A DNA stretch of 64,000 bases, from positions 1,334 to 65,333 of IMG/VR virus record IMGVR_UViG_3300045996_004585; one strand, written 5' to 3'. The position numbers and the translations under genes were made by a program. Below are positions 33,996 to 58,065 of this stretch, one piece after another (within the stretch, counting starts at the first letter, position 1; every line of letters begins with the position of its first letter). The notes under the pieces were generated by a model. That model was not told the DNA's origin and did no database searches. It was given only the letters and a program-made list of their open reading frames with translations. This DNA is from a virus. Taxonomy: Duplodnaviria > Heunggongvirae > Uroviricota > Caudoviricetes.

Positions 33996-34024
33996 TTGAC
34001 AAAACTCGTGACATCTGGTACATT
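33996..34024 (+). promoter_or_regulatory. sigma70-like promoter upstream of pnuC
   Basis: TTGACA, 17 nt, TGgTACATT. Transcription would start about 60 nt before the RBS AAGGGAGAG / ATG at 34089. Confidence 0.4.
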
Positions 34025-34088
34025 AATTAGTGAAGAGGTTAGGGTTCCTGATCGCCTAACCAAAAACAAAACAACAAGGGAGAGTACC

Positions 34089-37285: not shown

Positions 37286-37464
37286 TCGATAAGCTCTACG
37301 ATGTTTATTGGACGGATACCAGGAACAACAATGAGCGTTGTTCTGAGAAAGGTGGCCTTACGCGCGAGGAAGCAGAACGGATGATCGCTGAATGGGCGCG
37401 TGAGGCACCATTCTTTGTAGATTGCGTTATCCTACCCCACAATTCTAAGGAAGAACATGCGTAG
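37282..37464 (+). CDS. hypothetical protein
   Basis: ATGA junction. Confidence 0.3.
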   Translation: MIDKLYDVYWTDTRNNNERCSEKGGLTREEAERMIAEWAREAPFFVDCVILPHNSKEEHA

Positions 37465-38467: not shown

Positions 38468-38630
38468 GTAAGCGAGACATCTTTTATATCTTCTTAGACG
38501 GACTTCTTCTTTCTTGGTTCCTTTACGAGGGCGGACGTTGGTTCGCGTTTATTGCTGGCATGTTGTTTGTATTGATTCTAAACAAGTTGTTCGACTGGTA
38601 CTTGCGCCGTCCTCGTGCTACACTGTAATT

Positions 38631-39305
38631 ATGACTCACGTTGTAGCTATCAGCGATCTGCACGGCAACCTGCCTGAGATTCCTGAGTGTGATCTTCTAC
38701 TGATTGCTGGGGATGTCACACCCGTATGGAATCACGAGCGCAAGTTCCAGGCTGACTGGTTGCGTAACGATTTCTCGCAGTGGCTGATGAACGCACCCGC
38801 ACGAGCCATCGTTGGTGTGGGAGGTAACCACGACTTCGTGCTTGAGGATAGCAAGAAGATCGGCTCCGAGCTACCATGGGTTTACCTTAACAACGAATCG
38901 GTGACTCTGGGCCAATTCCATGATGACGAGAACCCTCTAACTATTTGGGGGTCGCCGCTATCCAACATGTTCGGCAATTGGGCTTTCATGAAGTGGGAGG
39001 AAGAGCTTGTTGCCGAGTGGATGAACATCCCTCGTGACATCGACATCCTCATCACACACGGGCCAGCTTACGGCTATGGTGACCGTGTGCCTGATCACTA
39101 TGCGCACGACCGTGATCCACATGTGGGTTCGACTTCGCTTACCTATCAGCTTGAGAACGACGAGTGGCCGAACTTGAAGTTGCATGTCTTCGGGCACATC
39201 CATAACGGGTATGGCTCCTACGTTGGCCCTACTCTCATGGTCAATGCAGCACACGTCAACGAGGAATACAAGCCTGTCAACGCACCAGTGGAGCTAGAGC
39301 TATGA
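38631..39305 (+). CDS. calcineurin-like metallophosphoesterase
   Basis: DLHGN, GDV, GNHD, GH-x-H motif series (ISDLHGNL; IAGDVTP; GGNHDF; FGHIHNG). ATG at 38631 chosen, after a small TM ORF. Confidence 0.6.
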   Translation: MTHVVAISDLHGNLPEIPECDLLLIAGDVTPVWNHERKFQADWLRNDFSQWLMNAPARAIVGVGGNHDFVLEDSKKIGSELPWVYLNNESVTLGQFHDDENPLTIWGSPLSNMFGNWAFMKWEEELVAEWMNIPRDIDILITHGPAYGYGDRVPDHYAHDRDPHVGSTSLTYQLENDEWPNLKLHVFGHIHNGYGSYVGPTLMVNAAHVNEEYKPVNAPVELEL

Positions 39306-42095: not shown

Positions 42096-42506
42096 ATGAT
42101 GGATATGTCATGGCACCTTTACGCGGTATTGGGTTTGCTGATCGCAGCAGTGTATGGGCTGCCCAGGCTTGTGAACGCCCTACTCCCTAAGCCGCCTGCA
42201 CCACCCGAGTTGATTCCCGTCCACCTGTTTGGTGGGCCGCATCACGACACGACACAACAGATTCGTGCAGACGAGAAGCCCCAGTTCTTCATCGCGCAAT
42301 ACCTGCCAGTCGATGAAGAGACGGGCGAGCCTAAGGAAGAGAACCTGATTAAGGCTGACGAGCAGAAGATGTACTTTAAGCCCAGTTATGCCTACTATCA
42401 GGCAATCACAGACAACGATTACTTCTACGTGCGCGACATCACAGCACAAGAGATTTACACGATGCAGAAGACCGGCAAGCTGCCGAGTCCTCAGCCTGAA
42501 GAGTAA
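42096..42506 (+). CDS. N-terminally anchored membrane protein
   Basis: HLYAVLGLLIAAVYGL TM near the N-terminus. Confidence 0.4.
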   Translation: MMDMSWHLYAVLGLLIAAVYGLPRLVNALLPKPPAPPELIPVHLFGGPHHDTTQQIRADEKPQFFIAQYLPVDEETGEPKEENLIKADEQKMYFKPSYAYYQAITDNDYFYVRDITAQEIYTMQKTGKLPSPQPEE

Positions 42507-42538
42507 CACCAAACACCAGAACGCCATAGCCACAGGTG

Positions 42539-42558
42539 GGCCACCGAAAGGTGGCCCT
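42539..42558 (+). terminator. hairpin with GAAA tetraloop (gggccacc-GAAA-ggtggccc)
   Basis: Perfect 8-bp stem 33 nt after the stop at 42506; followed by a ttccatttgg T-rich tract. Confidence 0.5.
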
Positions 42559-42617: not shown

Positions 42618-42887
42618 ATGAGCGGCAGCATCGTGTTTGTCCTGGTCGAACTAGATGACGGCGTGCAGGAGTTTTTCGAAACTGCTTACGATGGCTTCAA
42701 GTTTGCGAAGGAAGCAGAGCAGCGACGTAGGGGCAGTGTTGAGTACGTGGCTGTGGGCGAATTCTACGAATCAGAAGGATCAATCTATGCTGGCCAAGAG
42801 CTAAGGCACCTGCTTAGGTCGCTCGACAACGTACATGGATGGCTTAAGGCGCAGCATGAAGCAGAGACACATGAAGAGACAGATTAG
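42618..42887 (+). CDS. hypothetical protein
   Basis: RBS-like GGATTGAGGG upstream. Confidence 0.4.
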   Translation: MSGSIVFVLVELDDGVQEFFETAYDGFKFAKEAEQRRRGSVEYVAVGEFYESEGSIYAGQELRHLLRSLDNVHGWLKAQHEAETHEETD

Positions 42888-45800
42888 CAAGCTAGCGGCA
42901 CGAGTGTACGATGCTCTCGTTGAGGATGTAAGAGCTAATCTAACACCGGAATTGCTCAAGCCAGAGTTCAGGGAGTCTCCGTTCCCTACTGGCCACTGTT
43001 ATGTCGCCGCAGAGGCTATTTATCACTTAGCTGGTGGGCCTGAGTCAGGTCTAAAGCCTATGCGCCTACGTATGCCTGACGGTGTAGTACATTGGTGGCT
43101 TCAAACGGCTGAGGGTGAAGTCATCGATCCCACACATGATCAGTACCACGAACCTGTACCATACGCCCAGGGCCGCTCAGGAGGCTTCCTGACGGCCTCT
43201 CCGTCCAAACGGGCTAGAGAGGTCATGAAGCGCGTCACAGGGGCTGTAAAGACCGCACAAGAGCTTGTGTTGATTGAGCCTAGAGAGTACAAGTTCCATG
43301 GTGGTGGCTATCCCTTCTTCTACATCCCCAGTGAGCAGAAGCTATATGTGATGCCCGCACATGCGTTTCACACTGACATGGCACTCAATGACCCCGAGTT
43401 ACGGGAATTAATCAAGAACTACATGGTCAATACCTATCGCACAACAACAGCGCCGTACATCCCAGGTCGCATCCATCTTGATCGCCCAGGTGCAACAGAT
43501 GGTGAAGTTGATGTGTATGGGGAAATTGTTGGTATCGATGCTAAGAACCACTGGCAGCCAATCCTTCAATCCATGGTTGATCAGTGGTGGGGCACAGAGA
43601 TTCCAGTGACTACAAGCGACTATCAAGGCGATGAGTTTGAAGCAGAGCCTGATGAGTTAGGCGAGTACCGCGATGTTCTCTCTGGTTATGAACAGCAGAT
43701 GGGGCGAGTAGCCAAGATTGTCAATCTTCCAGCGTTCGAGAAGACCCATGATGGTGACGAACCCACAAAAGACACGTGGAGGCGAACGTTCGTCTACCTC
43801 CCCACCACTGACACGCTCTACCTAGCGAATCACAACGCATATCACACAGATATCTGGCGCTGGATCGCTGAGCAGAACCCTGACATGGACTGGGAGCCAC
43901 TACACAATCGTGAGGTAGAGCCATCTCTGGGCTTGATCCAACGCAATTATGATGACAAGCAGCTTGAGGTTCATTACTACCACGCCGAGGGTGCGCCATT
44001 ACCCGATCACATGATGTTCGAATTAGAAGAGCATCTAGGTGAACACATGTCGCAGGTGCCGTGGCAGTATCCTCGCCCACTCGCTGACGACTGGTATGGC
44101 GATTGGGACGATGACGATTACGGTGCGACAGAACAGTGGCCCACAGACACCAAGAGCATCGCTCGACTTTCAACACAGTTTGATCACCCCATCGAGAATC
44201 CAGTCAACTATGACTTCGTGCCTCTGTCGCCTCTTGAGACAACAGCATGGGACACTTTGACACCAAGAGAGCGACACTGGTGGAGACGTAAGGCGCTTAA
44301 GTTGAACAACTACAGTGACAACCGAGGCAAGGTTAGACCACAAGATTTGCATGCACTTTATACCCGTTACCAGGGCTTTTGTGCATATTGTGGTGGGCCA
44401 GGAGCCACAAGTTGGGATCATGTCATCCCACTATCGCAGGGTGGCCAGAACGCTATTGAGAACCTGTTGCCTTGCCATCGCGAATGCAATGGACAGTTGA
44501 ATGACTGGGATCAACGTATGAATCCATTTGATCCAAACTCCCAGACTAAGCCTCCCGGCTACTGGGGCTTCCAACCTGCTGAGGCTGCTGTGGATTGGTC
44601 GCGCTCTGATCGCGTTCCTTACCAGTTTGGATTCGCGTTTATGTATCACGAGGGTGAACTATATGTAACTCACAATGGTCATCATCCAGACCTAATGCGT
44701 GAGTACTTGCGACAACAGGGGAGCCAAGAGCTAGAAGCAATCCAAGGAGTACGAGCCTTCAAGGAACAGGTTAAGGCTGGCAAGACAGTCTTTGGCTGGG
44801 TAAATCGCGACGACATCGAGTTTGTGAGTGGTAGTGCAGGCGACGACATGGCGTGGCATGCCGATCCTAAGCTCAAAGCTGAAGCGCATGGGGCTGTTAA
44901 GCAGTACATGCAGGAACATAAGACAGCAGGCACATTGTCTACCAAGTTCATTAACATAACCGATGACATTTGGCCCAATTATCCTCACAAAGATTCAAGT
45001 AGTTTCGCATGGATGTATCTCGATGGCACACTTTACGTATTGAACACAGGCCATCATCCCGACATCATGCGCTGGTATTTGAAGAATAAAGCTTTGGGGA
45101 GCCGCGATCTTGCACGAGCTTTCAAGGAGGCTATTGGAGAGGGTCGCGCTGTGTTCGGTTGGACAGTAAATGCAGACTCTGCTGTGTTAAGCGGCAACGC
45201 GCCTGACTCTATGGCCCGTCAGGCTCCACCCGAATTACAAGCAGAAGCACTCGCTGCTTGTGATGCATATATCGAATCTTTGCGAGCTACCTACAAACGA
45301 GCAGGCACACAGCCTGTCGAGTTAATGGTGTCAGATGACAGGCGCTGGCACTTCGATGACTATCTCAAGAGATACGACCGATTCGCATGGGTTTACTTCG
45401 ACGGCACCCTCTACTGTGGTGACTTGCACAGGGATATCATGGCCGAGATGAGACGAGAAGGTTTAGACTTCAGAAATGGAGCTTACTACGGCTGGTATGA
45501 TCCTTGGGGCAAGGAAGCGCCCAAGCAACCGAATGGTATTGACTACGTAACAGATTACGGCGAGCAGCATGAGGCACTGTTGCCTGAAGTCGAAGCGTTT
45601 TTTGAGCGTTATCCGCCTAAAGCTGTCCTTGACTACCTCAAGCATGGCACAAGACTAGGTGCTGCGCCCATGAAGGTGATGCGCGTGAAGACACCGCGCA
45701 CGAAGTTCCGTGGGGTCTATGGCATGCCCTTTAGTTATGTGCCCAGTCTCAACACCATCTTCCTTGCAGACTCGCACACCTATCACACGCGCATGTGGCC

Positions 45801-48800
45801 ACGACTGCCTGAAGAGTTTAGGCGCATAGTTTTAAGTGAACGGGCATCTATGGTCAATGGGCACATCGTTCCGGTCAAGGGAGATTACCTTGGTGGAGTT
45901 CAGTTCTATCTAGAACAAGATCAGATCGTAGACGAGGCGACAGCGGCAGCGATCCAGGATGCGCTCGTGCCCTACGTCGAACAGCTTGAGTTCGAAGAGG
46001 AAGAGTACGTCGAAGAGACTAAGCCCGGTGACCAGGATCAGCTATCGCTATTAGGGAAGACAAGTGCCGATTGGGGTTGGCTCATGAACGATATCGAGTA
46101 CAAAGCACAAGAGATTGCTGCTCGTCACAATTGGGAAATGACATTTGAATGGCGGGGGATGCCAATGTCAGATTGGGATGGCCGAAAGTATTACAATGGC
46201 GATATTGGTGGAAGGGTTGACTTTCAGGTTCCCTGGTTTTTAGCAGAGAGTGACGAGACGTGGTTGCCTGATCAGATTACCACTGTCATATTCACTGCGC
46301 CACCTATTGTTGACAAGCTCACTTACTACATTGCACTACATGAGCTAGGGCACATGGCATTCGTGAGTCAATATGGGCGAGATGTTAACAGTCAGGAAGA
46401 AGAGTTCTGGGCGATGCATTGGGCTATTGAGAACGGTGGTGGCGTAGTGGATCGCGCAACTATGGAATACGCCGCTGATTTCGTCAACTCATATTTCACT
46501 GGCGAGGCTGTAGAGCAAGGTATTAAGCGTCGAGCGCCGTCCCTTCCTTACAAGTATGTTGAAGACACACGTTTCCAGCAATTGCCGCTCAGCAAAGTTG
46601 CAGGCACAACGATGTATCGTGTTCTCCCAAAGAAGTTCCGTGATTTTGTGATGAAGCATGGATTAGTTAGATTGCCGGATCACAGTGGCAGCATGGATGA
46701 TGCGAGATTGTACGTTTTTCAAGACTTAGATTCTGCGCGATTGTTTGCAGAACATTATCGTCATTATCAAACCTCAGATATCTGGCGTATCAATGCGCCC
46801 ACTGATCTGCCGATAAAGTTTGACCCACGAGATTATCCACTTCTCGGCGTTGAGCATCCAGATGTAGATGAAGTTGGCTATTGGAAGCCCACACCATTCT
46901 ATCTCCATGTGGATATTCCGCCCGAATATGTAGAGCTTGTCGATACAGTGGTTGGTGCGCGTCAGTTTGATACAAGTCTATCTAAGACCGCCAACGAGGA
47001 CGACATCTGGGTAGATGGCCTGCCATTTCATGAAGCGCTCGATGGTCAAGTGGCGTTCTTACTCTACCCTGATTTGCTCGTAGCTGCCGAAAGCACGGGC
47101 CACAACGACATTAGACGATGGGTGCGAGAGAACAGGCCCGAGTTGTTGCGTGAGGAAATCCTACAGGGCTACAGCCGCGTTGTCCAGGGCAGGCCATCAG
47201 TAAGCTCATACGAGTATGGCTTGCACACTGAAGACTCGTTCCCTGGCCTAACCAAGCGCGTGTTCAACCTCGCGCTCTTCAACGAGGTTGAAGTTGCCGA
47301 CTTCGATGTAATCCGAGGTTTGAGTAAGGAGGCAGCATTGTCTCCTTCAGACTTTGAGAAGGGCGACTACTACACTGAGGTCATCCACAACATCTGGATT
47401 TACAACGGTGTCACCAAGAAGCTTTACTATGGCCACATAAAGCCAACAGTTGAGCGCAATCTTTCGTCATGGGAAGACAACCACCCTGAGCTTATGCGTC
47501 GGTACCGTGATGAGTTGGGTGGCGAGAATCGAGACAAGAATGTCTATGGTTGGTGGGTGAGGCGCATTGATGATGGATCACTTCGACCTATCATCCATAG
47601 TGACGCTTTCTCTAACACACGACGATGGGAGCCGCTAGTCGAAGAGGCATTTGAAGCAGCAAAGGCTGCGATTTCAGAACAAGAGCGACCCATCGTAGAG
47701 GATTACCGTTATTCATCCAGGTGGTCTGAGATGCCGCCGATTGGCTCACAGTGGGAGTGGCACAACGATCAGTTCGAGAATATGCTAACGGTCGTTCGCC
47801 TCGATCCACGCAACGAGGTTGTCATCATCCGTGGTCAAGCGGGACATGAGGTAGAGATTCATCTAGATGACTGGCACGAGTATGTGAGTGATGGCATGTT
47901 AAAGACGGCAGCAGCAACAGATTACATCTGGGTCTACGATCCTAACACAGGAGAACTACTCATACACGAGGAAGATTATGGATTGGTTAGACACGTGACA
48001 TTGATGGCTCAGCTTGGCGACAAAGAATATGCCAAGACGCTTTGGGGTGGTCACTGGCGCGACGGTGAAATAGATGTGCAGCATTGGCCCGCGAAAATAC
48101 TCGATTGGAATATGTCAATAGAGGAACGAGAGCAGGCAACTCAAGAAGCACTCAAGGAAAAGGAAGACGCATACGCTGCGGTAAGAGCCAAGCTTGGCTC
48201 AGTGCGTGTAGGTGCCGCTATTCCTTATGAGTGGGTGGAGTTATACGATTCAGCCAGCGAGCAATACATGAAGGGTTCTTTGCCATTCGTGTATATAGAT
48301 GGCAAAATCTATATTGCTAATGGGTCAGCTTATCACACGGCGATATGGAGAGCGCTGAAGCGAAACGATTTGGTGCGCCACATTAGCACTGATCAATACG
48401 TTCAGGGATGGGTGAGCATTAGTGGTGATATCCACTTCTATGAGGGCGATGAGGCATGGCCTGACCCTGATCCTGAAGTGCTGAAGCAGATTAAACAGGC
48501 AGTAAGAGAAGCACATGATGAGCGCGTCAATGAGCGAGCCGATATGGGAGACTGGTTAACAACGGCGGCATGGCCGAGTAATCCTGCTTGGGTCTATGAC
48601 CCTGAGGTTGATAAGCTTTACGTTGGCCAATGGCACCAGGACATCATTAGAAGGAACAAGCTGATGGGTAAGGCTAAATTAGAGCGTGACCCTGACGGCG
48701 ACTTTGATTTGGTTCGATTCACTACGTCGCTCGTGCTGGGCTGGCATCATGCTGGCGTCTTCTCTGATTATGGCGCGAGTACTGCAACAGAAGAGCAGAA

Positions 48801-51800
48801 GCAGCGAGCGCTTGAACTGGCAGAGGAATACTATGCGGATGTCGATGATGATCCACGATACACGCGCACAGCGGCTGTGCCTAATCCTGTGCCCAAGTAC
48901 AGGTGGGTCGTGATGACCGATGGCACTGTGTTTGTAGACGAGGACGACATCTACTTGAATCACCCGCAGTTGTTCCGCATGAAGGCTAAGCCATTGGGCT
49001 ATACGAAGGACGACATTGCGGATGCTGGATATCGCTCACAGTCTTATATGAGGATGCTTCCTTGGTATCAGGAGAATGCTGATACGTATGCGGTTGAGGA
49101 TGACGAGAGGGTAAAACGACACACAGGCAATCTGGTAGTGCGCGATGATCCGCGCACTGATATCTTCATCTTCACTTATTCGCCGCAGTCAGACACGATG
49201 ATCATCGGCAATCGGAGATGGAATCACACTAGGTACTGGCAGAGTGATGATCAGGGGCTAATTGCAGGTGGCGTTAACCTAACGAGCGGGCTATGGTTCT
49301 ACGATGAGAGTATGGTCACGGCAGAGATAGAGGCGCGAGTAGAAGAACTAATAGACGAGTGGCGATCTTCTAACATAGGAGTAGGAGATAACACCACAAC
49401 ACCCACGGTATCAAGCCATCAGTCTACTGGAACAACCGCAGAGAATAGCGGTCAGTCTCGCCCTATACTCAGCACAACTGTCCTACAGGATTCTGCCCTG
49501 GTACCTAGTACTGCGCAGCTAGCACAGTTAGATGGCCAGGTCAAGGGCAATCACGATAAGCTGTGGGGTGTGATGACTGCACCGCATCCATCAGCATGGA
49601 TGCCCGCCACATATCCCGCCATCACCGCCACTCATACCGCCATGGATACAACACACGACCTTCTAACATCAGAGTGGTCACCTACACCTAGACCCGTACA
49701 CCTAGACCCCCACCAAGGTGGCACCATAGGGTACCCCCAGGGGTATACCGGAAAGGTGCTTTTCCCGACTGACACTACTTCAGCCTTTTCGGGTACTAGA
49801 CTGGCAGACTGGGACGAGGATTCCCCTAACATCGACGTAGCCTACACTGAAGCGCATGGATGGCGGGTATATCTGCTGGATACCAGCCTAATCCCCGGCC
49901 CTCCACCCTGGGAGAATCTGCGTAGGCCAGCGCATTGGAGCAAGGAACAGAAGCTGATCTTCATTGGTTCAGAGGGCACTCACCACAATCCATTGTTGAG
50001 GGGTCTGATCCTCACTGGGCTTGTTCAAAGCCCGGAGGATATCAATGATCTGAAGTGGGAAATCATCCTCCCTACAGGTGAGATACGCATGTCTCTACGC
50101 TTCGAAGAGGGGGCGCAGGAGGCAGTGAATGAAGCGCTGGGCACTGATTACGACCCATTGAAGAAGAACATTCCTGTCGGTTTGGAAGAGGGTCTGCGCG
50201 TGGACACATCTCGGACAGGTGCCGAGGAAAGTATGTCCGAGAATGAGATGTCATATGGAGGATGGACACTGCGAAGATTGCCTGACACTACAGTGTACGG
50301 CATGGGTACTAGATGGTCATGGGTAGCCAACCCTGACACCAGGGAGATTGTCTATGGATCAGGTTGGACTCACCGACCACTTTTCAAAGAATTGGGCTTG
50401 AGAGGCGATCATGCAGTCAACTTGAAAGAACGATCAAAACCTGCTGCTGGTATTGTCTGGGATGATGGGACTAGTTGGTTGTATGGTAATGCATTTATTG
50501 GCAACACAGTTGAAACAATCATGAAAGACGTATACCTGAAATCAAGTGCAAATGAGCCTCCTAGGCTCCCTAGACACACGGGCGCTATTCAGCTTCGTGA
50601 GGGCTGGGTATGGGGCGAGTGGCATCACCCTGAAGATGTCTATACGCCGCAGCCGTTCATCTACCAGAACCACACTCTTTGGTTAGGGGGCGACGATGCT
50701 CCTACACATCCTTTCGTTGTACGGAAGTATGGCCTAGATCGGGAGAAGCCCATGCTGCCGGGTTGGGTCTATCATGAGTCGAAGCAGATCGCTTTCCAGT
50801 CGTGGGAAGAGAATGTAGACCGGAGCCTCATCGAGGAAGCCATGCCGCTGATCTTGGCCTCTCTTCCTGAGGGGTATCAGAGAGTGCCGCAACGTACCAC
50901 GGCAGCTTCTGAATGGACTATCCATCTCGTGGACAATGCGCCTTACGAAGATGTAGGAAGCGATTGGTTATGGGCACCCACGCGATTCCCTGTTCTTTTC
51001 CAGAAGGAGCGAAAGATCATGTTCGTCGGCACGCAGCCTGGGTCGCATCACGTGCCTCTTATGAGGGCAATGAAAGAAAGTGTGCCATTCCAGGCATACA
51101 CTACACCAACGATTCGACCCACCCTATCGTGGGATTTCTTGGACAACGGCAAGCCGGGACGTGGCGACCATGCTATCGGCAGTACGCCCGGTGGAAGACA
51201 GGCCGTCCAAAAGGCATGGGCGATGCTACACCCAAAGAAGCCTGAACCAGCGGATCAGCTATCGCTCTTTGAAGCGAAGACGAGTGATTTCTATCCCCGC
51301 GAGAGAGCGTTCGCCTTCATTGATGGCAGACTGATTTTCGGCACTTCTCATAGCTCGATTCTGCGAAGAGCGAGGGAGGAAGGATTGTTGCTGAGCGATG
51401 ACCCGCAAATTGATCTGGGCTGGATGCAGCAATTAGATGACGACCACTGGGAGCCTGAGTCTATCTCATATGACAACAACGCCTTCGTTCGCTCTAGTTC
51501 CGAGTACCGAGCGCAAATGCTGGCTGAGGCACGCCGATTGTGGCCTGAGCATATGAGGAACTTGAAGGTTTCAAAGGACTCTCTTGTACTTGTAGATCAG
51601 CATCTCTGGGATGATGTCGCTCCGCACGTCAAGACCTTCAAACTTCATGATAGCGAAACGCAAACCGATGTCGGCAAGATCACGTATGGAATCATAGAGG
51701 ATGAGAAGAGAATCCATGTTGGCACGATGCATGTCGATGGGTTGTACCGCAAGACGGATGCTTTCATGCGACTAATTGAGCCTCTTGTACCGTACCTCTC

Positions 51801-53349
51801 CCAGGGCTATACCTTAGATGCTACGTATGTGAACCCGCGCTTGAAGAATGTGGTAGAGCGCTGGTTCGGTCGGCATGCAACATTGGGAGACATCGGCTCA
51901 GACTTCTTCTGTTGGGTCTACTGTGGTCAGTGTAAGCAGCTATGGATCGACGGTTACTCCTACCACGGTGACCTATACCGGAACAATCCTGAGATTAGAC
52001 GGGTGCATGCAAAAGAAGGCCATTCTCTTATCTGGGGTCAAGTCGCACTCTATGACAACCCTCCTATCCGCATGTACTCAGATTGGTATGAAGGCTGGGC
52101 TGATCAGCAAGAGAAGCCAGGAACCGACGATGGCTATGACTATGAAAGAGATGATGAGCTATTCGCAAACGCACAGCAGTTTGGTTACTTCAAGGAAGCT
52201 GAGCCTCTTGTTGAGGCTTGGCTGGATAAGGAGCGCGAAGGATGGAGAAAGGATGCGGCTGTCACCGACTGGGAAGTTGTCGATGTCACCACCATAATGG
52301 AAGGCAATGATAATCGCATCTTCAAGCCTGACCGTATTGCATTTGTAGCTGATACGGAATCTAAGCTCATTGCGATTGGTCGTGGCCTATACCACAAGCC
52401 CTTGATCAGGATGCTGGTAGACAACATGATAGGTAACACAGAAGTCGAGCATGGAGCAGAGCTTAACCGCAACGAAGGCTTGCGTGACAGATTCGTGGCT
52501 GGATACTACTTCCAGGCCGACAAGCATTTCGATCCTGAGTCAGGCTATCACTTAGAAGGAAGAGAGGTTCAGACGGCTGTTGCACTGTACGTGGATCAAC
52601 ATCCGGTGTTAAGCAAGACGGCAGCTATCAAGATTGTAGAGGTCGATACAACAGGCGTGCAGTACGATGATTGGATTGGCGAAGACATCGCAAAGGTGCG
52701 TCGCCCAATGCTCTATCAGCCATGGGACGACACCGTGTACATCGGGCCGACAAAGGGTCTTCATGGGCAGATAGCTAGGAAGCTGGGATGGGATAAGACG
52801 TGGTGGGATGATTCATTGCGAGGCATGATCGTCCGAGATGAAATTTTGTGGTTTGGTAGCGTACCCCAAGAGGCTCAAGATGCCGTGCAAGCTTGGCATG
52901 ATGACAGAAGCCATCTGCGAACAGCAGGAACACAGGACGCTGATTTGGCTTTCGATCCGTTCAGTAATAGGCCCAATGCCAAGGGTCTGCGTGGAGAAGA
53001 CTACGGACTTGACCCCCGTGGAACCTTCGTTTACGTGGACGGTGTGCTATTCTGGGGCGACCGTATTCACCCGCGCATGTTGAAGCAGATTATGGAGGAA
53101 CACTTCGATATCCCCGATCCCAAGATTGCTGACTTCAAGAACTTCATCGCTACGCACGAGACAGCTTTCGGGCGTGTACGTTGGGAAGGTGAGTTCCTTT
53201 GGTACATGGGAGGTACGCCCGAGTTTGCTGAAGAGACAGCGGTGAGTTTCGTTAGTTGGGATTTTGGAGATACCGCGCCTGAAACTAAAGAGAAGGTGTT
53301 GGCTGAAATCCGCAAGTATGCTCCTGACCTAGAAATGGAAGAAGAGTAA
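42835..53349 (+). CDS. giant polyvalent protein (3504 aa) with ~20 repeated modules, HNH nuclease motif and HExxH zincin motif
   Basis: Uninterrupted 10.5-kb ORF (alternative starts at 42856 and 42871). HNH motif CAYCGGPGATSWDHVIPLSQGGQNAIENLLPCHRECN at nt ~44380-44492. HExxH motif ALHELGHMAF at nt ~46339. About 20 copies of the module [FW]-x-[FWY]-h-Y-x-D-G-x-L-Y-h-x(5-7)-H-x-x-h-h-R. Low-complexity linker at ~49380-49800. Confidence 0.8.
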   Translation: MDGLRRSMKQRHMKRQISKLAARVYDALVEDVRANLTPELLKPEFRESPFPTGHCYVAAEAIYHLAGGPESGLKPMRLRMPDGVVHWWLQTAEGEVIDPTHDQYHEPVPYAQGRSGGFLTASPSKRAREVMKRVTGAVKTAQELVLIEPREYKFHGGGYPFFYIPSEQKLYVMPAHAFHTDMALNDPELRELIKNYMVNTYRTTTAPYIPGRIHLDRPGATDGEVDVYGEIVGIDAKNHWQPILQSMVDQWWGTEIPVTTSDYQGDEFEAEPDELGEYRDVLSGYEQQMGRVAKIVNLPAFEKTHDGDEPTKDTWRRTFVYLPTTDTLYLANHNAYHTDIWRWIAEQNPDMDWEPLHNREVEPSLGLIQRNYDDKQLEVHYYHAEGAPLPDHMMFELEEHLGEHMSQVPWQYPRPLADDWYGDWDDDDYGATEQWPTDTKSIARLSTQFDHPIENPVNYDFVPLSPLETTAWDTLTPRERHWWRRKALKLNNYSDNRGKVRPQDLHALYTRYQGFCAYCGGPGATSWDHVIPLSQGGQNAIENLLPCHRECNGQLNDWDQRMNPFDPNSQTKPPGYWGFQPAEAAVDWSRSDRVPYQFGFAFMYHEGELYVTHNGHHPDLMREYLRQQGSQELEAIQGVRAFKEQVKAGKTVFGWVNRDDIEFVSGSAGDDMAWHADPKLKAEAHGAVKQYMQEHKTAGTLSTKFINITDDIWPNYPHKDSSSFAWMYLDGTLYVLNTGHHPDIMRWYLKNKALGSRDLARAFKEAIGEGRAVFGWTVNADSAVLSGNAPDSMARQAPPELQAEALAACDAYIESLRATYKRAGTQPVELMVSDDRRWHFDDYLKRYDRFAWVYFDGTLYCGDLHRDIMAEMRREGLDFRNGAYYGWYDPWGKEAPKQPNGIDYVTDYGEQHEALLPEVEAFFERYPPKAVLDYLKHGTRLGAAPMKVMRVKTPRTKFRGVYGMPFSYVPSLNTIFLADSHTYHTRMWPRLPEEFRRIVLSERASMVNGHIVPVKGDYLGGVQFYLEQDQIVDEATAAAIQDALVPYVEQLEFEEEEYVEETKPGDQDQLSLLGKTSADWGWLMNDIEYKAQEIAARHNWEMTFEWRGMPMSDWDGRKYYNGDIGGRVDFQVPWFLAESDETWLPDQITTVIFTAPPIVDKLTYYIALHELGHMAFVSQYGRDVNSQEEEFWAMHWAIENGGGVVDRATMEYAADFVNSYFTGEAVEQGIKRRAPSLPYKYVEDTRFQQLPLSKVAGTTMYRVLPKKFRDFVMKHGLVRLPDHSGSMDDARLYVFQDLDSARLFAEHYRHYQTSDIWRINAPTDLPIKFDPRDYPLLGVEHPDVDEVGYWKPTPFYLHVDIPPEYVELVDTVVGARQFDTSLSKTANEDDIWVDGLPFHEALDGQVAFLLYPDLLVAAESTGHNDIRRWVRENRPELLREEILQGYSRVVQGRPSVSSYEYGLHTEDSFPGLTKRVFNLALFNEVEVADFDVIRGLSKEAALSPSDFEKGDYYTEVIHNIWIYNGVTKKLYYGHIKPTVERNLSSWEDNHPELMRRYRDELGGENRDKNVYGWWVRRIDDGSLRPIIHSDAFSNTRRWEPLVEEAFEAAKAAISEQERPIVEDYRYSSRWSEMPPIGSQWEWHNDQFENMLTVVRLDPRNEVVIIRGQAGHEVEIHLDDWHEYVSDGMLKTAAATDYIWVYDPNTGELLIHEEDYGLVRHVTLMAQLGDKEYAKTLWGGHWRDGEIDVQHWPAKILDWNMSIEEREQATQEALKEKEDAYAAVRAKLGSVRVGAAIPYEWVELYDSASEQYMKGSLPFVYIDGKIYIANGSAYHTAIWRALKRNDLVRHISTDQYVQGWVSISGDIHFYEGDEAWPDPDPEVLKQIKQAVREAHDERVNERADMGDWLTTAAWPSNPAWVYDPEVDKLYVGQWHQDIIRRNKLMGKAKLERDPDGDFDLVRFTTSLVLGWHHAGVFSDYGASTATEEQKQRALELAEEYYADVDDDPRYTRTAAVPNPVPKYRWVVMTDGTVFVDEDDIYLNHPQLFRMKAKPLGYTKDDIADAGYRSQSYMRMLPWYQENADTYAVEDDERVKRHTGNLVVRDDPRTDIFIFTYSPQSDTMIIGNRRWNHTRYWQSDDQGLIAGGVNLTSGLWFYDESMVTAEIEARVEELIDEWRSSNIGVGDNTTTPTVSSHQSTGTTAENSGQSRPILSTTVLQDSALVPSTAQLAQLDGQVKGNHDKLWGVMTAPHPSAWMPATYPAITATHTAMDTTHDLLTSEWSPTPRPVHLDPHQGGTIGYPQGYTGKVLFPTDTTSAFSGTRLADWDEDSPNIDVAYTEAHGWRVYLLDTSLIPGPPPWENLRRPAHWSKEQKLIFIGSEGTHHNPLLRGLILTGLVQSPEDINDLKWEIILPTGEIRMSLRFEEGAQEAVNEALGTDYDPLKKNIPVGLEEGLRVDTSRTGAEESMSENEMSYGGWTLRRLPDTTVYGMGTRWSWVANPDTREIVYGSGWTHRPLFKELGLRGDHAVNLKERSKPAAGIVWDDGTSWLYGNAFIGNTVETIMKDVYLKSSANEPPRLPRHTGAIQLREGWVWGEWHHPEDVYTPQPFIYQNHTLWLGGDDAPTHPFVVRKYGLDREKPMLPGWVYHESKQIAFQSWEENVDRSLIEEAMPLILASLPEGYQRVPQRTTAASEWTIHLVDNAPYEDVGSDWLWAPTRFPVLFQKERKIMFVGTQPGSHHVPLMRAMKESVPFQAYTTPTIRPTLSWDFLDNGKPGRGDHAIGSTPGGRQAVQKAWAMLHPKKPEPADQLSLFEAKTSDFYPRERAFAFIDGRLIFGTSHSSILRRAREEGLLLSDDPQIDLGWMQQLDDDHWEPESISYDNNAFVRSSSEYRAQMLAEARRLWPEHMRNLKVSKDSLVLVDQHLWDDVAPHVKTFKLHDSETQTDVGKITYGIIEDEKRIHVGTMHVDGLYRKTDAFMRLIEPLVPYLSQGYTLDATYVNPRLKNVVERWFGRHATLGDIGSDFFCWVYCGQCKQLWIDGYSYHGDLYRNNPEIRRVHAKEGHSLIWGQVALYDNPPIRMYSDWYEGWADQQEKPGTDDGYDYERDDELFANAQQFGYFKEAEPLVEAWLDKEREGWRKDAAVTDWEVVDVTTIMEGNDNRIFKPDRIAFVADTESKLIAIGRGLYHKPLIRMLVDNMIGNTEVEHGAELNRNEGLRDRFVAGYYFQADKHFDPESGYHLEGREVQTAVALYVDQHPVLSKTAAIKIVEVDTTGVQYDDWIGEDIAKVRRPMLYQPWDDTVYIGPTKGLHGQIARKLGWDKTWWDDSLRGMIVRDEILWFGSVPQEAQDAVQAWHDDRSHLRTAGTQDADLAFDPFSNRPNAKGLRGEDYGLDPRGTFVYVDGVLFWGDRIHPRMLKQIMEEHFDIPDPKIADFKNFIATHETAFGRVRWEGEFLWYMGGTPEFAEETAVSFVSWDFGDTAPETKEKVLAEIRKYAPDLEMEEE

Positions 53350-55623
53350 ATGGCACCACGAGTTCTATATCACTACAGTGACCCAGCTAACCGCGAGTCC
53401 ATTCAGTTAGGAGGGCTTTCGCCTGACTTCGATTTCACAGGTCTTGGCGCGGTCTATCTCTCCACTGAGCCTCTTGACACTTCAGATGAGGCTGACGTGT
53501 GGCGCGTTTATACTCAGGGACTTGACGTTGTTGACGATGTTTCAACGCCAGGTTTCGAAGGCGAGTGGTTCATGTACTACGGTGTCATTCCGCCCGAGCG
53601 CCTAGAGTTGATGGGCGAGTGGGAAAAGGCAGCCAAGTGGAAGAAGATGGCCGAGACTTACATGGGGTGGCCCAAGTTCGACCGTGGTGACAAGGTGATC
53701 GTTTTGGGCTATGGAGAGAAGGGCACTGTCGATTCTGCTCACTGGGTAGAGGATCGAGACGAATGGTGGTATCGCGTCTGGACTATTGTCGATGGTATTC
53801 ATGAGCTTACTCCTGTTCCAGAAAGCGACCTTGAGCGCCTTAGCGCGGGACTCGATGATAATGCTGACCTAGATCAGCCGTCTGCCTGGACGCTCAAAGA
53901 CTTCGGAATCCCACCTGAAGCAGAAGAATACTTCCGTTCAGCGGGATTACGTGACCAAATTGAGTGGATACGCGCTCAAGTGGGGATAGATGGTGAAGAG
54001 TTTGAGCCAACCAGGGCAGCGACACCCTGGGCTAAGGGTAAGTCAAATGGAATGTGGTACTGCCGTAAGTGTGGCGAAGGGCCATGGGATAAGTTGTGGT
54101 ACGCGCAACAACACACACAATCTCGACATCCAATAGCGAAATATGTTACAATGGATAGGATGAGTGCTAACCAAGCACAGCTTGACGCTATCCGCGAAAC
54201 CTATGAGGCGGATATCAACGCCCGTGCCGCAACGGACGCGCTGACGGCTGCCGGTGGACGGGTCTTCATCGTTGGTGGGGCCGTTCGTGACGCTTTCCTT
54301 GGAAGACCGTCCAAGGACGTAGATTTGATGTGTCAAGGCTTGACTGGCGACGAGATTATGGCGGCGCTGTCTCCCTTGGGCATCGTCAAGCTGACGGGCG
54401 AAGCGTTCGGCGTCTACCGCTTCAGGCTCCCTAACACAGACGCAAGTCAAGAGGTTGAGATTGCCCTTCCTCGTACCGAGCGCTCCACAGGCGCTGGCCA
54501 CAAGGACTTTGAGGTTCAGACTGATCCTTACCTCGACCCTGTGGTCGATCTACAGCGCCGTGACTTCACTGGAAACGCGATGGCCTATGATCCTGTCGGC
54601 AATGAGCTTCTCGACCCGCACGGGGGCGCTGATGACCTTACAGCGGGTCGCCTGAGGTTGGTCAATGACAGCGCGCTTGCAGATGACCCTCTGAGAATCG
54701 TGCGCGCACTTGTGGCAAACGCTCGCTTCGGACTTCAGCCTGATGAAGACCTACTTGACGCGCTGTCTGCGAACGCACACAGACTAAAGTCTCTCCCTGG
54801 CGAGCGCATCCAGATGGAGATGGATAAGCTGCTCGCTGGCGACAACCCTGCGGGGGCTATGGAGATTGCTGCTGCCTCAGGGTTGATTGACTACATGGTG
54901 CCCGAGCTTGCCGCTGCGGTTGGCTTCGATCAGATGAACCCGCACCATGACCTGAGTGTCTACGATCATACGATGGAAGTCTTAAGGGCGGCAGCACGCC
55001 TAACAACCGATCCTGACATTCGCCTAGCTGCACTCTTCCACGATGCTGGTAAGCCCGAATCCTTCTGGCGAGATGAGACTGCACCCGAGGGTGGCGGCGG
55101 GCACTTCTACAAGAAGGTGTTGGAGGACGGCACTGAGATTGGGGAGAACCATGAAGAGGTTTCTGCTCGCTTGGTCGAGGCGTTCATGAAGCGCCTGCGC
55201 TACCCTAACGACCGCATGAAGCGTGTCACGACGCTGTGCGCCAACCATATGTTCCCGTACTTCAAGACCGAGAAGGGGGCACGTAAGTTCTTGGCCGCAC
55301 TCGACGGTGACTTCAAGCTGGCTGAGGATTTGCTGACTCTTCGTGAGGCCGATGCTTCAGGTAAGAGGGATGGTTCAATCAATGAGCGTGACCGCAAGGC
55401 AATCGACCGCGCAAGAGAATTGCTCGCAGCAGCGAAGGAAAACAACACTGCCGTCACGGTGAAGGACTTGGCTGTGAATGGCCACGACTTGATGCAGTTT
55501 GGACTGAAAGGGCCGCAGATTGGGCAAGCTCAGAAGAAGCTGCTTGAAGTTATCATCGACAATCCAGAACTCAATGAACGAGAATCATTGCTTAGACTGT
55601 TGAGGGACGGCCTGGTGGGTTAA
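53350..55623 (+). CDS. CCA-adding-enzyme-like nucleotidyltransferase + HD domain protein with Tpt1/KptA-like ART-fold N-terminal domain
   Basis: Pol-beta head motif VFIVGGAVRDAFLGRPSKDVDLM; HD motifs HHDLSVYDHTMEV and LFHDAGKP; N-terminal VLYHYSDPANRESIQLGGLSP ... VYLSTEP ... VIPPERLEL. Confidence 0.7.
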   Translation: MAPRVLYHYSDPANRESIQLGGLSPDFDFTGLGAVYLSTEPLDTSDEADVWRVYTQGLDVVDDVSTPGFEGEWFMYYGVIPPERLELMGEWEKAAKWKKMAETYMGWPKFDRGDKVIVLGYGEKGTVDSAHWVEDRDEWWYRVWTIVDGIHELTPVPESDLERLSAGLDDNADLDQPSAWTLKDFGIPPEAEEYFRSAGLRDQIEWIRAQVGIDGEEFEPTRAATPWAKGKSNGMWYCRKCGEGPWDKLWYAQQHTQSRHPIAKYVTMDRMSANQAQLDAIRETYEADINARAATDALTAAGGRVFIVGGAVRDAFLGRPSKDVDLMCQGLTGDEIMAALSPLGIVKLTGEAFGVYRFRLPNTDASQEVEIALPRTERSTGAGHKDFEVQTDPYLDPVVDLQRRDFTGNAMAYDPVGNELLDPHGGADDLTAGRLRLVNDSALADDPLRIVRALVANARFGLQPDEDLLDALSANAHRLKSLPGERIQMEMDKLLAGDNPAGAMEIAAASGLIDYMVPELAAAVGFDQMNPHHDLSVYDHTMEVLRAAARLTTDPDIRLAALFHDAGKPESFWRDETAPEGGGGHFYKKVLEDGTEIGENHEEVSARLVEAFMKRLRYPNDRMKRVTTLCANHMFPYFKTEKGARKFLAALDGDFKLAEDLLTLREADASGKRDGSINERDRKAIDRARELLAAAKENNTAVTVKDLAVNGHDLMQFGLKGPQIGQAQKKLLEVIIDNPELNERESLLRLLRDGLVG

Positions 55624-55624
55624 C

Positions 55625-55909
55625 GTGATGTTTGATCCTTCACTACTCAGCGAGAAATTGAGAGATGGAACAGTCTCGTATGAGGGCGGCTTTAATCTGG
55701 GCTTGAAGGGTCACGTTCGTCAGTTGCTTGTCATCACTGGGCAAATCAAACATGAGTACGATGATGGCATGGGTGCCGCGACCGGCAAGATTGGCAAAGC
55801 ATGGGTCATGGGCAACTTAGATGGACTAGCTACTGGTGGCCACGAAGACATGTTGACCGAAGATCAGATGAGACTTGCGCACGAGTGGCTAGACTCAGAA
55901 CCTGACTAG
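55625..55909 (+). CDS. hypothetical protein
   Basis: Sits between two large genes; GTGATG junction. Confidence 0.35.
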   Translation: MMFDPSLLSEKLRDGTVSYEGGFNLGLKGHVRQLLVITGQIKHEYDDGMGAATGKIGKAWVMGNLDGLATGGHEDMLTEDQMRLAHEWLDSEPD

Positions 55910-58065
55910 TGCGTACACCAATAAGTGCTATGCAGAAAACAGCACGCACAACGCTTTACCACGTTACTCCACAAGCCAACAGAGAGAGCATCTTGGCTGA
56001 AGGATTAAATCCTGCCTATGCCCCTGGTCGTGATTACGTGTGGCTATGGGATGATCCACAGGAGATGTCTGAAATACTTGTTAATAGTCTGACGTGGGGC
56101 GGGGATCGAACACCCGATGTTTGGCTGGTTGATGGTTCCGGTATCCAATTGCAACGTGATCCCCATCCAAGTGGCTGGGCGCATGCATTTGCTACGCGCG
56201 ATGCGATCCCGCCCGATAGACTCCAACTGATGCCTCCTGAAAGGTTCTCTCTAGCCCGAACCAGTAATATTTTCGACCCAATCGAGAAGTCGCTCGACCA
56301 ACAGGTGTTCCGGGGCATCGAGCCACGGCAGCACCACATTGACTGGATTCTTAGACTGTACGCACGAGCGCTGATGCAGCGATTCGGCGTCCAGGGAGAC
56401 GGCTGGACTGACCTGTACTTCACTGGCTCGCTGACGACCTATCAGTACAGCGAGACAAGCGATGCTGACATCTCTGTCTTCGCCAACTGGGATCGTTTCA
56501 CTGAAGAGCTAGGCATGGATGTTCAGACGACTCGTAAGGAGTTGATCGCCATGAGCATCGACCATCTCGATGGAACCTTCCTCCCAGGCACCACGCACCC
56601 GCTACAGTTCTTTGTAGTACCCCAGGGAGTACTTCCATCCGACCTGTACCAGCCGGGGCTTAGAAGCGCTTACAGCCTCGATGACCGTATGTGGTATCAG
56701 GAACCTGAGCCGGATCGTGTTCACGAGATTGCTGTCGAGCTACCGGAATTCATGGCTCGTGCCGCTGATATGGCTGAAAAGATGACTGAAATGCTCGACC
56801 ACGATCCTGAGTCTGCCCGCCAACTCTGGCACGACATTCACAAGAAGCGTCAGCTTGATCAGCAGGCAGGGCTTGGTGACTTTAGTGAAGGGAACATCGT
56901 CTATAAGTACCTGCTTCACGAGGGGCTGTTCGACCGCATCCGTGAAGAACTAGGCGAGTACATCGCCAAGACGGCCATTTCACGTGGACAGGCTTGGGTC
57001 TATGATCCTAAAACTGACACGCTAGCTTCTGGCCATCCTTTTCATGCGCACGTTTTGCATGATATGGGTTATCATTCTGGCAAAGACCCGGCACTTCATG
57101 GATTTATCTATGGTGTCGTCAACGATGCTGGACTATATTCTGTGTTGATCAAAACTGATTTTCCTACGGTGGATTACCGTGACTACATTCCTCAGATTGA
57201 GGTCAAGCTGACAGAACTGATGGGCATGCCCGTTAAGAATCGGTGGGTACTAGAGGATAGCGACCGGCTGAGTCAGAGGAAAGTTGCAGCACTCCTTGAT
57301 GAAGAGACAATCGCTGATCTAACTGCTCACATCTACGAGCTAGCGGAGAAATATAGAATTGAGATTCGATGGGGAGAAGATAGGCATAATGCTTGGGCTG
57401 CGCCTGATCTTGTCATGACTCCGCAAATTCGCTATGACATCGATTACCTTGTGGCTCTTCATGAGGTAGGCCACGTTGTCTTGCAGATGGAAGGGCAGCA
57501 CCCTGACTGGGAGTTTTACGACGAATGGTCAGAGGTTGAGGAAGAGGCTCAAGTCTGGCGGTGGGCACTCGATAACACGATCATTCCTATTAGCCCGGAG
57601 ATGCTACGTCAAGCGAAGTGGGATTTGGGCACGTACTATGAGCATGCTACCCAGACATTTGGCAAGCCGCGCGAACCAGAGGAAGTTGGAGAGAATTACA
57701 GATGGCTTCTCAATTTCCAGAGCGCCAACCTTTGGGATAGAGTTACGACCAAGGTCATCTACGACTTTGACAAAGACCAGATTGTGCTTGGAACACAGGC
57801 AACCCTAGCTGACTTGCCACATTCTAAGATCATCGGGGAGTACGCCGACGAGGCAGTTACTCTCTTTGAAGCAGAGAAGCAGTGGATCAACCCCGGTTAC
57901 TTCCACCGCTTATGGCAGCACACCTTCCCGAATCGACCGCTCAAGGATGTCTACTACCGGCGCGGCGACAACTCGGAATACAAACTCAAGACAAGGGTAA
58001 AGCAATGGACGCGAGGCGACTTAGAAGACGGGCCGTATCCATGGGAAGACGGCGATACAGATTAG
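55909..58065 (+). CDS. multidomain protein: Tpt1/KptA-like ART-fold N-domain, minimal nucleotidyltransferase motif, one copy of the giant-protein module, HExxH zincin motif
   Basis: N-terminal TLYHVTPQANRESILAEGLNP ... AIPPDRLQLM (paralogous to the 53350 N-terminus); NTase motif FTGSLTTYQYSETSDADISVF; module WVYDPKTDTLASGHPFHAHVLHDMGY; zincin motif ALHEVGHVVL. Confidence 0.6.
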   Translation: MRTPISAMQKTARTTLYHVTPQANRESILAEGLNPAYAPGRDYVWLWDDPQEMSEILVNSLTWGGDRTPDVWLVDGSGIQLQRDPHPSGWAHAFATRDAIPPDRLQLMPPERFSLARTSNIFDPIEKSLDQQVFRGIEPRQHHIDWILRLYARALMQRFGVQGDGWTDLYFTGSLTTYQYSETSDADISVFANWDRFTEELGMDVQTTRKELIAMSIDHLDGTFLPGTTHPLQFFVVPQGVLPSDLYQPGLRSAYSLDDRMWYQEPEPDRVHEIAVELPEFMARAADMAEKMTEMLDHDPESARQLWHDIHKKRQLDQQAGLGDFSEGNIVYKYLLHEGLFDRIREELGEYIAKTAISRGQAWVYDPKTDTLASGHPFHAHVLHDMGYHSGKDPALHGFIYGVVNDAGLYSVLIKTDFPTVDYRDYIPQIEVKLTELMGMPVKNRWVLEDSDRLSQRKVAALLDEETIADLTAHIYELAEKYRIEIRWGEDRHNAWAAPDLVMTPQIRYDIDYLVALHEVGHVVLQMEGQHPDWEFYDEWSEVEEEAQVWRWALDNTIIPISPEMLRQAKWDLGTYYEHATQTFGKPREPEEVGENYRWLLNFQSANLWDRVTTKVIYDFDKDQIVLGTQATLADLPHSKIIGEYADEAVTLFEAEKQWINPGYFHRLWQHTFPNRPLKDVYYRRGDNSEYKLKTRVKQWTRGDLEDGPYPWEDGDTD

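Follow-up and report, generated by a model that had tools for sequence, protein, structure and literature searches.

A 3504-residue phage protein dominated by 22 copies of one repeated domain and encoded next to a CCA-adding enzyme

We report on a 3504-codon open reading frame (ORF) located between positions 42835 and 53349 on the + strand of a 64,000-nucleotide stretch of tailed-phage DNA (Caudoviricetes; IMG/VR record IMGVR_UViG_3300045996_004585, positions 1,334 to 65,333), hereafter referred to as the window. The predicted product of this ORF has 3504 amino acids (aa) and a mass of 403 kDa, it is acidic with an isoelectric point (pI) of 5.06, and it is Trp-rich (3.5%). An initial annotation, made from the letters and their ORFs, described a giant protein combining two nuclease- and peptidase-like motifs with many copies of a short module. 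Here we describe the anatomy of this protein, the family formed by its repeated domain, the synteny of its gene and the fusions present among its relatives, and we consider what role such a protein might have during infection.

The giant ORF and its repeated domain

The 10.5-kb frame was correctly read as uninterrupted, and its 3504 codons are free of stops. The position of the start codon can be fixed only to within 12 codons: homologues begin near M8/M13, and translation may in fact initiate at the ATG at 42871 or at that at 42856, the latter overlapping, in the sequence ATGA, with the stop of a 79-codon ORF located upstream (42619-42858, +). This small ORF follows a terminator-like, G+C-rich hairpin, GGGCCACCGAAAGGTGGCCC (42538-42557, +; identified in a consensus scan only), which lies 3' of the ORF at 42096-42506 and upstream of the giant gene, and together the hairpin and the 79-codon ORF may mark the start of a transcription unit. 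In the public JGI gene call (P0001), labelled 'McrA', the start lies 79 codons downstream, hence a conserved N-terminal domain is cut in half; our analysis corrects both the label and the late start. ARAGORN also reported a permuted tmRNA ('tmRNA*') at 49541-49965 on the - strand, within the giant ORF, which is most likely a false positive.

Among independent assemblies from JGI, ENA, NCBI and Logan we identified 12 homologues that are full-length (2159-4712 aa), one of which was recovered from two assemblies. Megablast of the giant ORF gave no match. The frame comes from a metagenomic contig, and it might therefore be mis-assembled or frame-fused, or the repeat might be a misread member of a known family; its core, Y-x-D-G-x-L-Y, we take to be superficially like the RHS/YD repeat. 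The 12 homologues show together with the 10.5 kb of stop-free sequence and the conserved synteny (see below) that the ORF is not an assembly artefact. As to RHS/YD, no RHS_repeat or other Pfam repeat family matches, and the period of about 110 aa, with three helices per unit between the hairpins, differs from the contiguous hairpins of about 20 aa in YD repeats. We regard this explanation as refuted.

The five example strings given for the module are all present, at aa 600, 724, 1817, 2826 and 3398, and where about 20 dispersed copies had been claimed we find 22. In the self-comparison, 120-aa tiles were searched against each other using phmmer and the repeat was evident, with aa 601-706 matching 725-831 at E 2e-23 in addition to dozens of weaker pairs; self-BLAST of the whole protein returned the identity match alone. 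We also constructed a hidden Markov model (HMM) from 81 units, all taken from homologous proteins and none from the giant ORF. With this homologue-only HMM the giant protein scores 352.9 bits over 22 domains, of which 17 reach at least 10 bits. The best of 200 shuffled sequences attained 7.6 bits over the full length and 8.8 bits for a domain, and the reversed sequence scores -6.8. Both approaches thus place the repeat far beyond chance. An iterated, family-wide HMM of the core identified 21 copies in the giant ORF and approximately 170 in the 12 homologues.

The size of the unit had been put at about 30 aa, which does not hold. Across the family the distance between successive cores has its mode at 100-130 aa and a second peak at double that distance, which argues that the 30-aa module is the conserved start of a domain of approximately 110 aa. 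In agreement with this, an AlphaFold2 model computed on alignment A1 (92 bounded units) for unit 4 (aa 720-845) shows one compact domain of about 105 aa, with a predicted local distance difference test (pLDDT) score of 76.7 and a predicted template modelling (pTM) score of 0.69. The modelled domain consists of a hairpin (residues 6-17), two helices (22-33 and 38-49), a second hairpin (53-66) and a long helix (80-103), whereas the final 20 residues are disordered and, as judged from the sequences, may belong to the next unit. On this model the 30-aa module is the conserved first hairpin plus the His-helix of a larger alpha+beta domain.

The 22 units, which cover approximately 57% of the chain, are distributed as follows (all on the + strand; bit scores refer to the homologue-only HMM). 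Unit 1 (43300-43590, aa 156-252; 12.9 bits) has an orthologous unit in the homologue P0002 (E 2e-23) and is followed by unit 2 (43774-44055, aa 314-407; 28.8 bits). Unit 3 (44629-44991, aa 599-719; 30.5 bits) is a recent duplicate of unit 4 (44995-45324, aa 721-830; 23.6 bits), the two matching at E 1e-24. Next comes unit 5 (45373-45711, aa 847-959; 34.8 bits), the best-conserved subtype of the family with orthologues in 12 proteins, and then unit 6 (45724-46038, aa 964-1068; 17.1 bits), the P0002 orthologue of which matches at E 9e-43. Unit 7 (47074-47244, aa 1414-1470; 3.9 bits) is weak or degenerate, with an independent E value (iE) of 0.17 for the core HMM, and unit 8 (47395-47655, aa 1521-1607; 7.0 bits; iE 0.003) is also weak. 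These precede units 9 (47917-48234, aa 1695-1800; 16.3 bits), 10 (48271-48519, aa 1813-1895; 40.1 bits) and 11 (48577-48897, aa 1915-2021; 25.3 bits). The very weak unit 12 (48904-49089, aa 2024-2085; 0.9 bits) is placed by its motif (regular-expression match YRWVVMTDGTVFVDEDDIYLNHPQLF) and spacing only, and unit 13 (49165-49392, aa 2111-2186; 10.6 bits) has an orthologue in the homologue P0005 (E 5e-20). Further downstream are units 14 (49921-50151, aa 2363-2439; 9.2 bits), 15 (50305-50574, aa 2491-2580; 21.1 bits), 16 (50644-50967, aa 2604-2711; 24.6 bits) and 17 (50977-51213, aa 2715-2793; 11.2 bits), the weak unit 18 (51298-51450, aa 2822-2872; 5.9 bits; iE 0.001), and units 19 (51910-52119, aa 3026-3095; 10.0 bits), 20 (52327-52683, aa 3165-3283; 11.9 bits) and 21 (52699-52977, aa 3289-3381; 37.6 bits). 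Unit 22 (53017-53334, aa 3395-3500; 14.1 bits) ends the array close to the C-terminus.

Distribution, subtypes and junctions of the domain

The module had been described as unplaceable in any known family, and our searches agree with this. Neither Pfam, PHROGs nor NCBIfam holds a family for the module of the giant ORF, Pfam run on 102 relatives left the module unmatched and returned no repeat family, and the A1 profile gave nothing below E 0.99 against all PDB sequences. As to structure, the module model corresponds to no described family among PDB folds, the ERH (enhancer of rudimentary homologue) and PHPT1/janus folds being the closest known ones, and Foldseek against BFVD gave nothing below E 0.2. 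Likewise, none of 50,697 deposited phage genomes was matched by tblastn with three consecutive units, a narrow, pattern-limited search for the unit-5-type subtype (A6) in GTDB species genomes and IMG/VR gave no relative, and in the literature on giant repeat proteins of jumbo phages we found no description of the module. As far as the searched libraries go, the repeated unit is a previously undescribed domain family.

The family is rare and sharply defined. An exhaustive HMM search of 1.84e9 cluster representatives identified 258 proteins at E<=1e-3, with between 2 and 30 matched stretches per protein among the 150 best listed of these 258. Each of the 151 proteins analysed contains at least two copies of the module (median 4, maximum 26-30), a copy number that is unprecedented; some proteins consist of only two or three units. 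Of 18 well-delimited units in the giant ORF, 15 have their best match in another protein (e.g. unit 5 in P0002, E 3e-36), and units 3 and 4 represent the sole recent tandem duplicate. Clustering of the units gave at least 15 subtypes, each common to 4-12 giant proteins in which they occur in differing orders. On these data the array is a set of old, shuffled and specialised paralogues rather than a recently expanded spacer, and the individual conservation of the paralogous units favours specialised binding over a simple spacer function.

In alignment A1 a single His is invariant and a Gly nearly so, and conservation across 766 copies from 152 proteins is 100% for the His, 97% for an aromatic residue, 95% for the Gly and 94% for a Pro. 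In the unit 4 model the invariant His starts the helix at residues 22-33. It is conceivable that the module itself binds a ligand or is catalytic around this His at the N-terminus of a helix (as a phosphate, nucleotide or metal site, or as a phospho-His carrier), in which case the giant protein would be a multivalent sink or a processive array. The conservation and the position of the His fit such a role, as does the association of the module with nucleotide- and RNA-end-processing enzymes (see below). One invariant polar residue would not, however, usually suffice for an active site, most units are acidic (19 with a negative net charge, one neutral, two basic), and there is no sequence similarity to nucleotide-binding families in Pfam, PDB sequences or NCBIfam; we therefore consider this reading distinctly unlikely. 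The suggestion that the module binds nucleic acids or nucleotides likewise finds no support, given the charge of the units and of the whole protein.

A motif of the type basic-Thr-Ala-small followed by a beta-strand (e.g. SKTAAIKIVEVD) is located 3-31 aa upstream of the unit cores. In its strict form (K[TVI][AS]-type) it occurs 16 times in the giant ORF, where 2.5 are expected, and, with a background of 4%, in 71 of 171 units of the family; a relaxed form, read by eye, is present at no fewer than 19 of the 22 unit boundaries. In the unit 4 model the motif sits just past the last helix, in a low-confidence linker. These features raise the question of whether the giant protein is a polyprotein, from which its own peptidases (of the Cys-His-Asp and/or zincin-like type, see below) or a phage protease would free some 20 small acidic effectors or inhibitors plus the enzymes by cutting at the junctions. 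In addition to the enrichment and the linker position of the motif, this would be in keeping with the presence of two peptidase-like domains in the protein, with the mostly acidic, individually conserved paralogues of about 100 aa that resemble many small phage anti-defence proteins, with the existence of proteins of just two or three units, and with the autoproteolysis by MPTase domains already proposed for polyvalent proteins (PMC5512222). On the other hand, the motif may be no more than a helix C-cap plus the strand with which the next unit opens, several boundaries lack it or have only a degenerate form, and the lack of any single-copy protein among the 151 analysed is unexpected if single units are the functional products. 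A polyprotein of this kind is in our view rather unlikely. An even bolder form, for which we see somewhat less chance, would have the module as a new superfamily with ERH-like topology, an invariant helix-capping His and at least 15 subtypes, present in 20-30 copies in true polyproteins of 250-550 kDa that are cut by built-in peptidases at Lys-Thr-Ala junctions to release small effectors and RNA-repair enzymes; if true, such a polyprotein strategy would be essentially unheard of among tailed double-stranded DNA phages.

Enzyme-like domains and the cassette with a CCA-adding enzyme

The giant protein starts with a YunG-family domain (42904-43254, +; aa ~24-140), in which the GHC (C55), HWW (H86) and DPT.DQ (D98) motifs are invariant and kept in all close homologues. 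The initial annotation contained neither this domain nor the LYH domain and the coupling to a CCA-adding enzyme (see below). A search with this domain identified 31 standalone proteins of 111-190 aa (E 3e-32 to 2e-16), 14 of which carry YunG (PF24585), and identity to standalone members of the YunG family over the N-terminal 120 aa ranges from 38 to 58%. Pfam YunG matches three of the 12 orthologues directly, the copy in the giant ORF itself being below the Pfam reporting level. LapG, Ceg10, protein-glutaminase and TGase-like proteases give the best superpositions with the AlphaFold2 model of the domain (pLDDT 92.6), and together with the invariant Cys, His and Asp in that order this indicates a transglutaminase/papain-like fold with a predicted Cys-His-Asp triad. 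The likeness to transglutaminase-like/papain-fold cysteine enzymes (LapG, protein-glutaminase, BTLCP) includes the order of the three residues and the core fold. A literature look-up on 'YunG' returned author names only. Using tblastn, YunG-like domains were detected in phiCbK-like Caulobacter jumbo phages (gp296) and Synechococcus phages; in phiCbK (NC_019405.1, L003) gp296 (94026-94700) is a standalone YunG-like protein of 224 aa that is annotated as hypothetical and encoded directly after DNA polymerase I. The 4712-aa homologue P0005 (L001/L002) carries a second, internal YunG-like domain at aa ~2753, so the domain is not confined to the N-terminus.

The HNH motif noted initially, CAYCGG...WDHVIPLSQGGQNAIENLLPCHRECN, lies at aa 516-552 (nt 44380-44490) and belongs to a genuine HNH domain with a conserved N-terminal extension (44272-44544, +; aa ~480-570, Pfam core 516-556). 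It is matched by PF14279 and by PF01844 (E 6e-8, 33.1 bits against a cut-off of 21.4), by 14 PHROG families of the HNH or endonuclease VII type and by PDB 4h9d (E 0.004), and the residues CAYC...DH...N...N..PCHRECN can be read directly in the giant ORF. The HExxH...E motif, YYIALHELGHMAF at aa 1164-1176 (nt 46324-46362) followed by EEEFWAMHWAIE at aa 1188-1199, is part of a conserved zincin-like domain of about 80 aa (46285-46533, +; aa ~1151-1233; 94.5 bits with its HMM), which contains H1169-E-L-G-H1173 and, at 1188-1199, EEEFW..H..E. Across 11 aligned copies, which come from six proteins carrying as many as three each, neither HExxH nor EE.W..H..E varies.

Downstream of this lies a domain that we refer to as LYH (46591-46947, +; aa ~1253-1371; alignment A7), which scores 88.2 bits with its HMM and in which the giant copy has His replaced by Arg (MYRV). 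The LYH domain occurs in 26 of the module proteins analysed and also opens the next two genes. With the LYH profile, six of eight weak PDB matches, including the best, are RNA 2'-phosphotransferases (Tpt1/KptA; E 0.13-1), the alignment resting on LYHGTP..N..SIL..GL and VPP...L; NCBIfam gave a weak match at E 0.064 and Pfam PTS_2-RNA one at E 0.007 in one relative. In Tpt1/KptA the C-lobe has the ART fold and an H-G-T/S motif for NAD binding, and the N-terminal RNA-binding lobe carries part of an Arg-His-Arg-Arg tetrad. The LYH domain, about 105 aa long, aligns only to residues ~90-178 of these 180-aa enzymes and is therefore not a member of the Tpt1 family; the weak matches suggest a domain like the C-lobe of KptA, without the N-lobe. 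According to hhalign the module is unrelated to both the LYH and the YunG domain (probability <2%).

Between units 13 and 14 there is a low-complexity segment rich in Thr, Ser, Pro and Ala (49402-49869, +; aa ~2190-2345, assigned by composition), which is probably disordered and contains DPHQGG, the local form of (Y/D)PHQ(T/G)xPSRVPP that is conserved in six family proteins. A stretch at aa ~2935-3010 that had looked GNAT-like was dropped, as it has no Pfam match and phmmer with aa 2880-3025 gave no match in P0002 or P0007, the two relatives that by eye have a GNAT-like part. Inserts that are shuffled among the relatives include GNAT (in five of 12), HNH, cREC_REC, PcfJ, YunG and PolyA_pol.

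The ATG of the next gene directly abuts the TAA of the giant ORF. This gene (53350-55623, +) encodes a CCA-adding tRNA nucleotidyltransferase of 757 aa with an HD domain, as evident from Pfam (PolyA_pol, PolyA_pol_RNAbd, HD and tRNA_NucTran2_2) and the NCBIfam CCA families; the CCA/HD part covers aa 286-757 and an LYH domain aa 1-91. Within the 285-aa N-terminal extension we noted by eye an SH3/Tudor-like stretch (GDKVIVLGYGEKGTV...WWYRVW) and a zinc-ribbon-like Cys/His motif (WYCRKCGEGPW...HTQSRH). A CCA gene adjoins the giant gene in all four loci for which downstream sequence is available (the homologous loci being L001/L002, L004 and L006), and in at least five representatives (P0043, P0081, P0132, P0123 and P0102) the CCA enzyme is fused to the C-terminus of the module array, with the order YunG-modules-CCA in P0043. 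The third gene of the cassette (55909-58065, +) encodes a 718-aa protein that combines an LYH domain (aa 9-111), a Pol-beta-type nucleotidyltransferase (NTase; aa ~114-351, GSLTTYQYSETSDADISVF; GS...SDADISVF), one module copy (aa ~360-446; iE 1e-6) and a zincin-like domain with ALHEVGH (aa ~503-588). Homologues of this NTase are encoded downstream of the CCA gene in L001, L004, L006 and L007. In the P0002 locus (L006, 20412-24835) the NTase gene and the gene after it show faint or weak LAGLIDADG_3, Hom_end_hint and Intein_splicing signatures. The adjacency, the fusions and the conserved downstream NTase suggest that the unit of selection is the cassette, i.e. the giant protein, the CCA-adding/HD enzyme and the second NTase.

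The genes of the window are all on the + strand and include, according to PHROG and Pfam matches, those for thymidylate synthase, thymidine kinase, an ATP-dependent DNA ligase, a metallophosphoesterase, an HD phosphohydrolase and an AAA ATPase. PHROG matches to tRNA nucleotidyltransferase and HNH families were obtained as well. Upstream of the giant gene are genes for a PnuC-like nicotinamide riboside transporter (33984-34808), a NadR-type NMN adenylyltransferase/kinase (37457-38467) and the metallophosphoesterase (38514-39305), all on the + strand, and relatives have NadR-like and Metallophos genes (L005) or a Metallophos gene (L001) upstream as well, so that this region constitutes an NAD+ salvage and phosphoesterase neighbourhood. 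The homologues reside on phage-like contigs of 56-168 kb. No close cultured phage was found, since megablast of the giant ORF gave no match and the DNA ligase is at most 36% identical; the source is an uncultured large (jumbo-type) tailed phage, and the window looks like part of its genome.

Three consecutive large ORFs of 1197, 797 and 830 aa at 14952-23430 (+) probably encode tail fibres or depolymerases, the third having a right-handed beta-helix (PF13229, E 6.5e-9) and the second matching a phage 'phosphodiesterase' PHROG; structural genes are thus present within 20 kb of the giant gene. A separate 584-aa ORF at 25323-27077 (+) is HNH-endonuclease-like (phrog_1314, E 7e-31) and lies in a region where the G+C content is locally high (0.57-0.58) and both strands contain several long ORFs that overlap. 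With fibre-like ORFs 20 kb upstream in the same window, the giant protein could itself be a structural component of the virion, its tandem domains building a long fibre, a decoration protein or an internal-head/ejection protein with the enzymes as accessories. Its very large size, the long Ser/Thr/Pro linker and the tandem array of small domains, typical of fibres and decoration proteins, would be compatible with this, and N4 vRNAP provides a precedent for a giant virion-packaged enzyme (PMC5512222). The gene, however, has nucleotide-metabolism, NAD and RNA-repair genes as its neighbours, and translationally it abuts that of a CCA-adding enzyme, to which it is fused in relatives; moreover, the order and number of units vary freely among relatives, unlike in length-determining structural proteins, and no structural PHROG or Pfam family matches the giant ORF. 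A structural role consequently appears quite improbable to us.

A proposed polyvalent-type scaffold and its relation to known systems

The explanation that we favour, and to which we give roughly an even chance, is that the giant protein is a polyvalent-type mega-scaffold tied to RNA/tRNA-end repair or host takeover. The repeated domains would act as non-catalytic adaptor or scaffold units, each ancient subtype binding its own partner or holding one enzyme head, and the scaffold would assemble, or deliver at once, several enzymes acting on host proteins and on RNA/tRNA ends. The activities brought together may comprise CCA repair, 2'/3'-phosphate clean-up, nucleotide addition, nuclease and peptidase, and the setting could be host takeover or counter-defence against immunity that targets tRNA or NAD. 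The embedded peptidase domains may in addition trim the chain at the conserved basic-Thr-Ala-small junctions.

Several points weigh against this explanation. No annotated relative speaks to function, and a His that is invariant in all 766 copies would more often be expected to bind a ligand or take part in catalysis than to belong to a passive adaptor. No Pfam or PHROG family indicating linkage to MuF, portal or head genes was detected in the giant ORF, 27 relatives or the neighbours, and the flanking genes are metabolic or involved in RNA repair, which leaves the delivery-with-DNA part of the polyvalent concept unsupported. Further, the module model is of moderate confidence only (pLDDT 76.7) and is without the N-terminal strand that, to judge from the sequence, belongs to the unit, the zincin-like domain has no match in Pfam, NCBIfam or PDB, and the ART/KptA assignment comes from sub-threshold matches while the giant protein's own LYH copy is without the His.

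The family links tRNA 3'-end repair enzymes with a transglutaminase-like enzyme, a nuclease and a peptidase, and the fusion or adjacency with the CCA-adding enzyme is a concrete, testable handle on the role of the giant protein in infection; mutagenesis and mass spectrometry have simple targets in the invariant His and the conserved junction motif. If our interpretation is correct, the module represents a new domain family with 766 recognisable copies in approximately 150 proteins, and the giant protein a new architectural type of phage mega-protein.

The closest known systems are the polyvalent proteins, to which the initial annotation had likened the architecture, and both the domain vocabulary and its shuffling among relatives fit the description by Iyer et al. 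2017 (PMC5512222). Polyvalent proteins have 2-15 mostly different domains in variable architectures, and MPTase, ART, GNAT and Pol-beta NTase are among the commonest of these (PMC5512222). Like them, the giant protein is phage-encoded and carries at least two unrelated enzyme domains in an architecture that is shuffled between relatives. Unlike them, approximately 57% of its chain consists of 22 copies of one non-enzymatic domain that is outside the published repertoire; in the text of that study the word 'repeat' occurs only twice and never for such a module (PMC5512222). Its close relatives also differ from the polyvalent class in that they start with a YunG-like domain and couple to a CCA-adding enzyme, and no head-packaging linkage was seen. 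Judged by its domain composition, the giant protein is an unusual variant of the polyvalent phage proteins, dominated by one repeated new domain.

A second comparison concerns jumbo phages, which carry CCA-adding, KptA, calcineurin-like and HD RNA-repair enzymes as well as NAD+ salvage genes (PMC7824862, PMC9503650). The window has a similar set, with CCA-adding/HD, a calcineurin-like phosphoesterase, a ligase, NadR, PnuC, a KptA-lobe-like domain and an additional Pol-beta NTase. In the jumbo phages these are separate small proteins, whereas here the KptA-like domain is without its N-lobe and several of the activities are attached to, or encoded directly after, a giant repeat protein.

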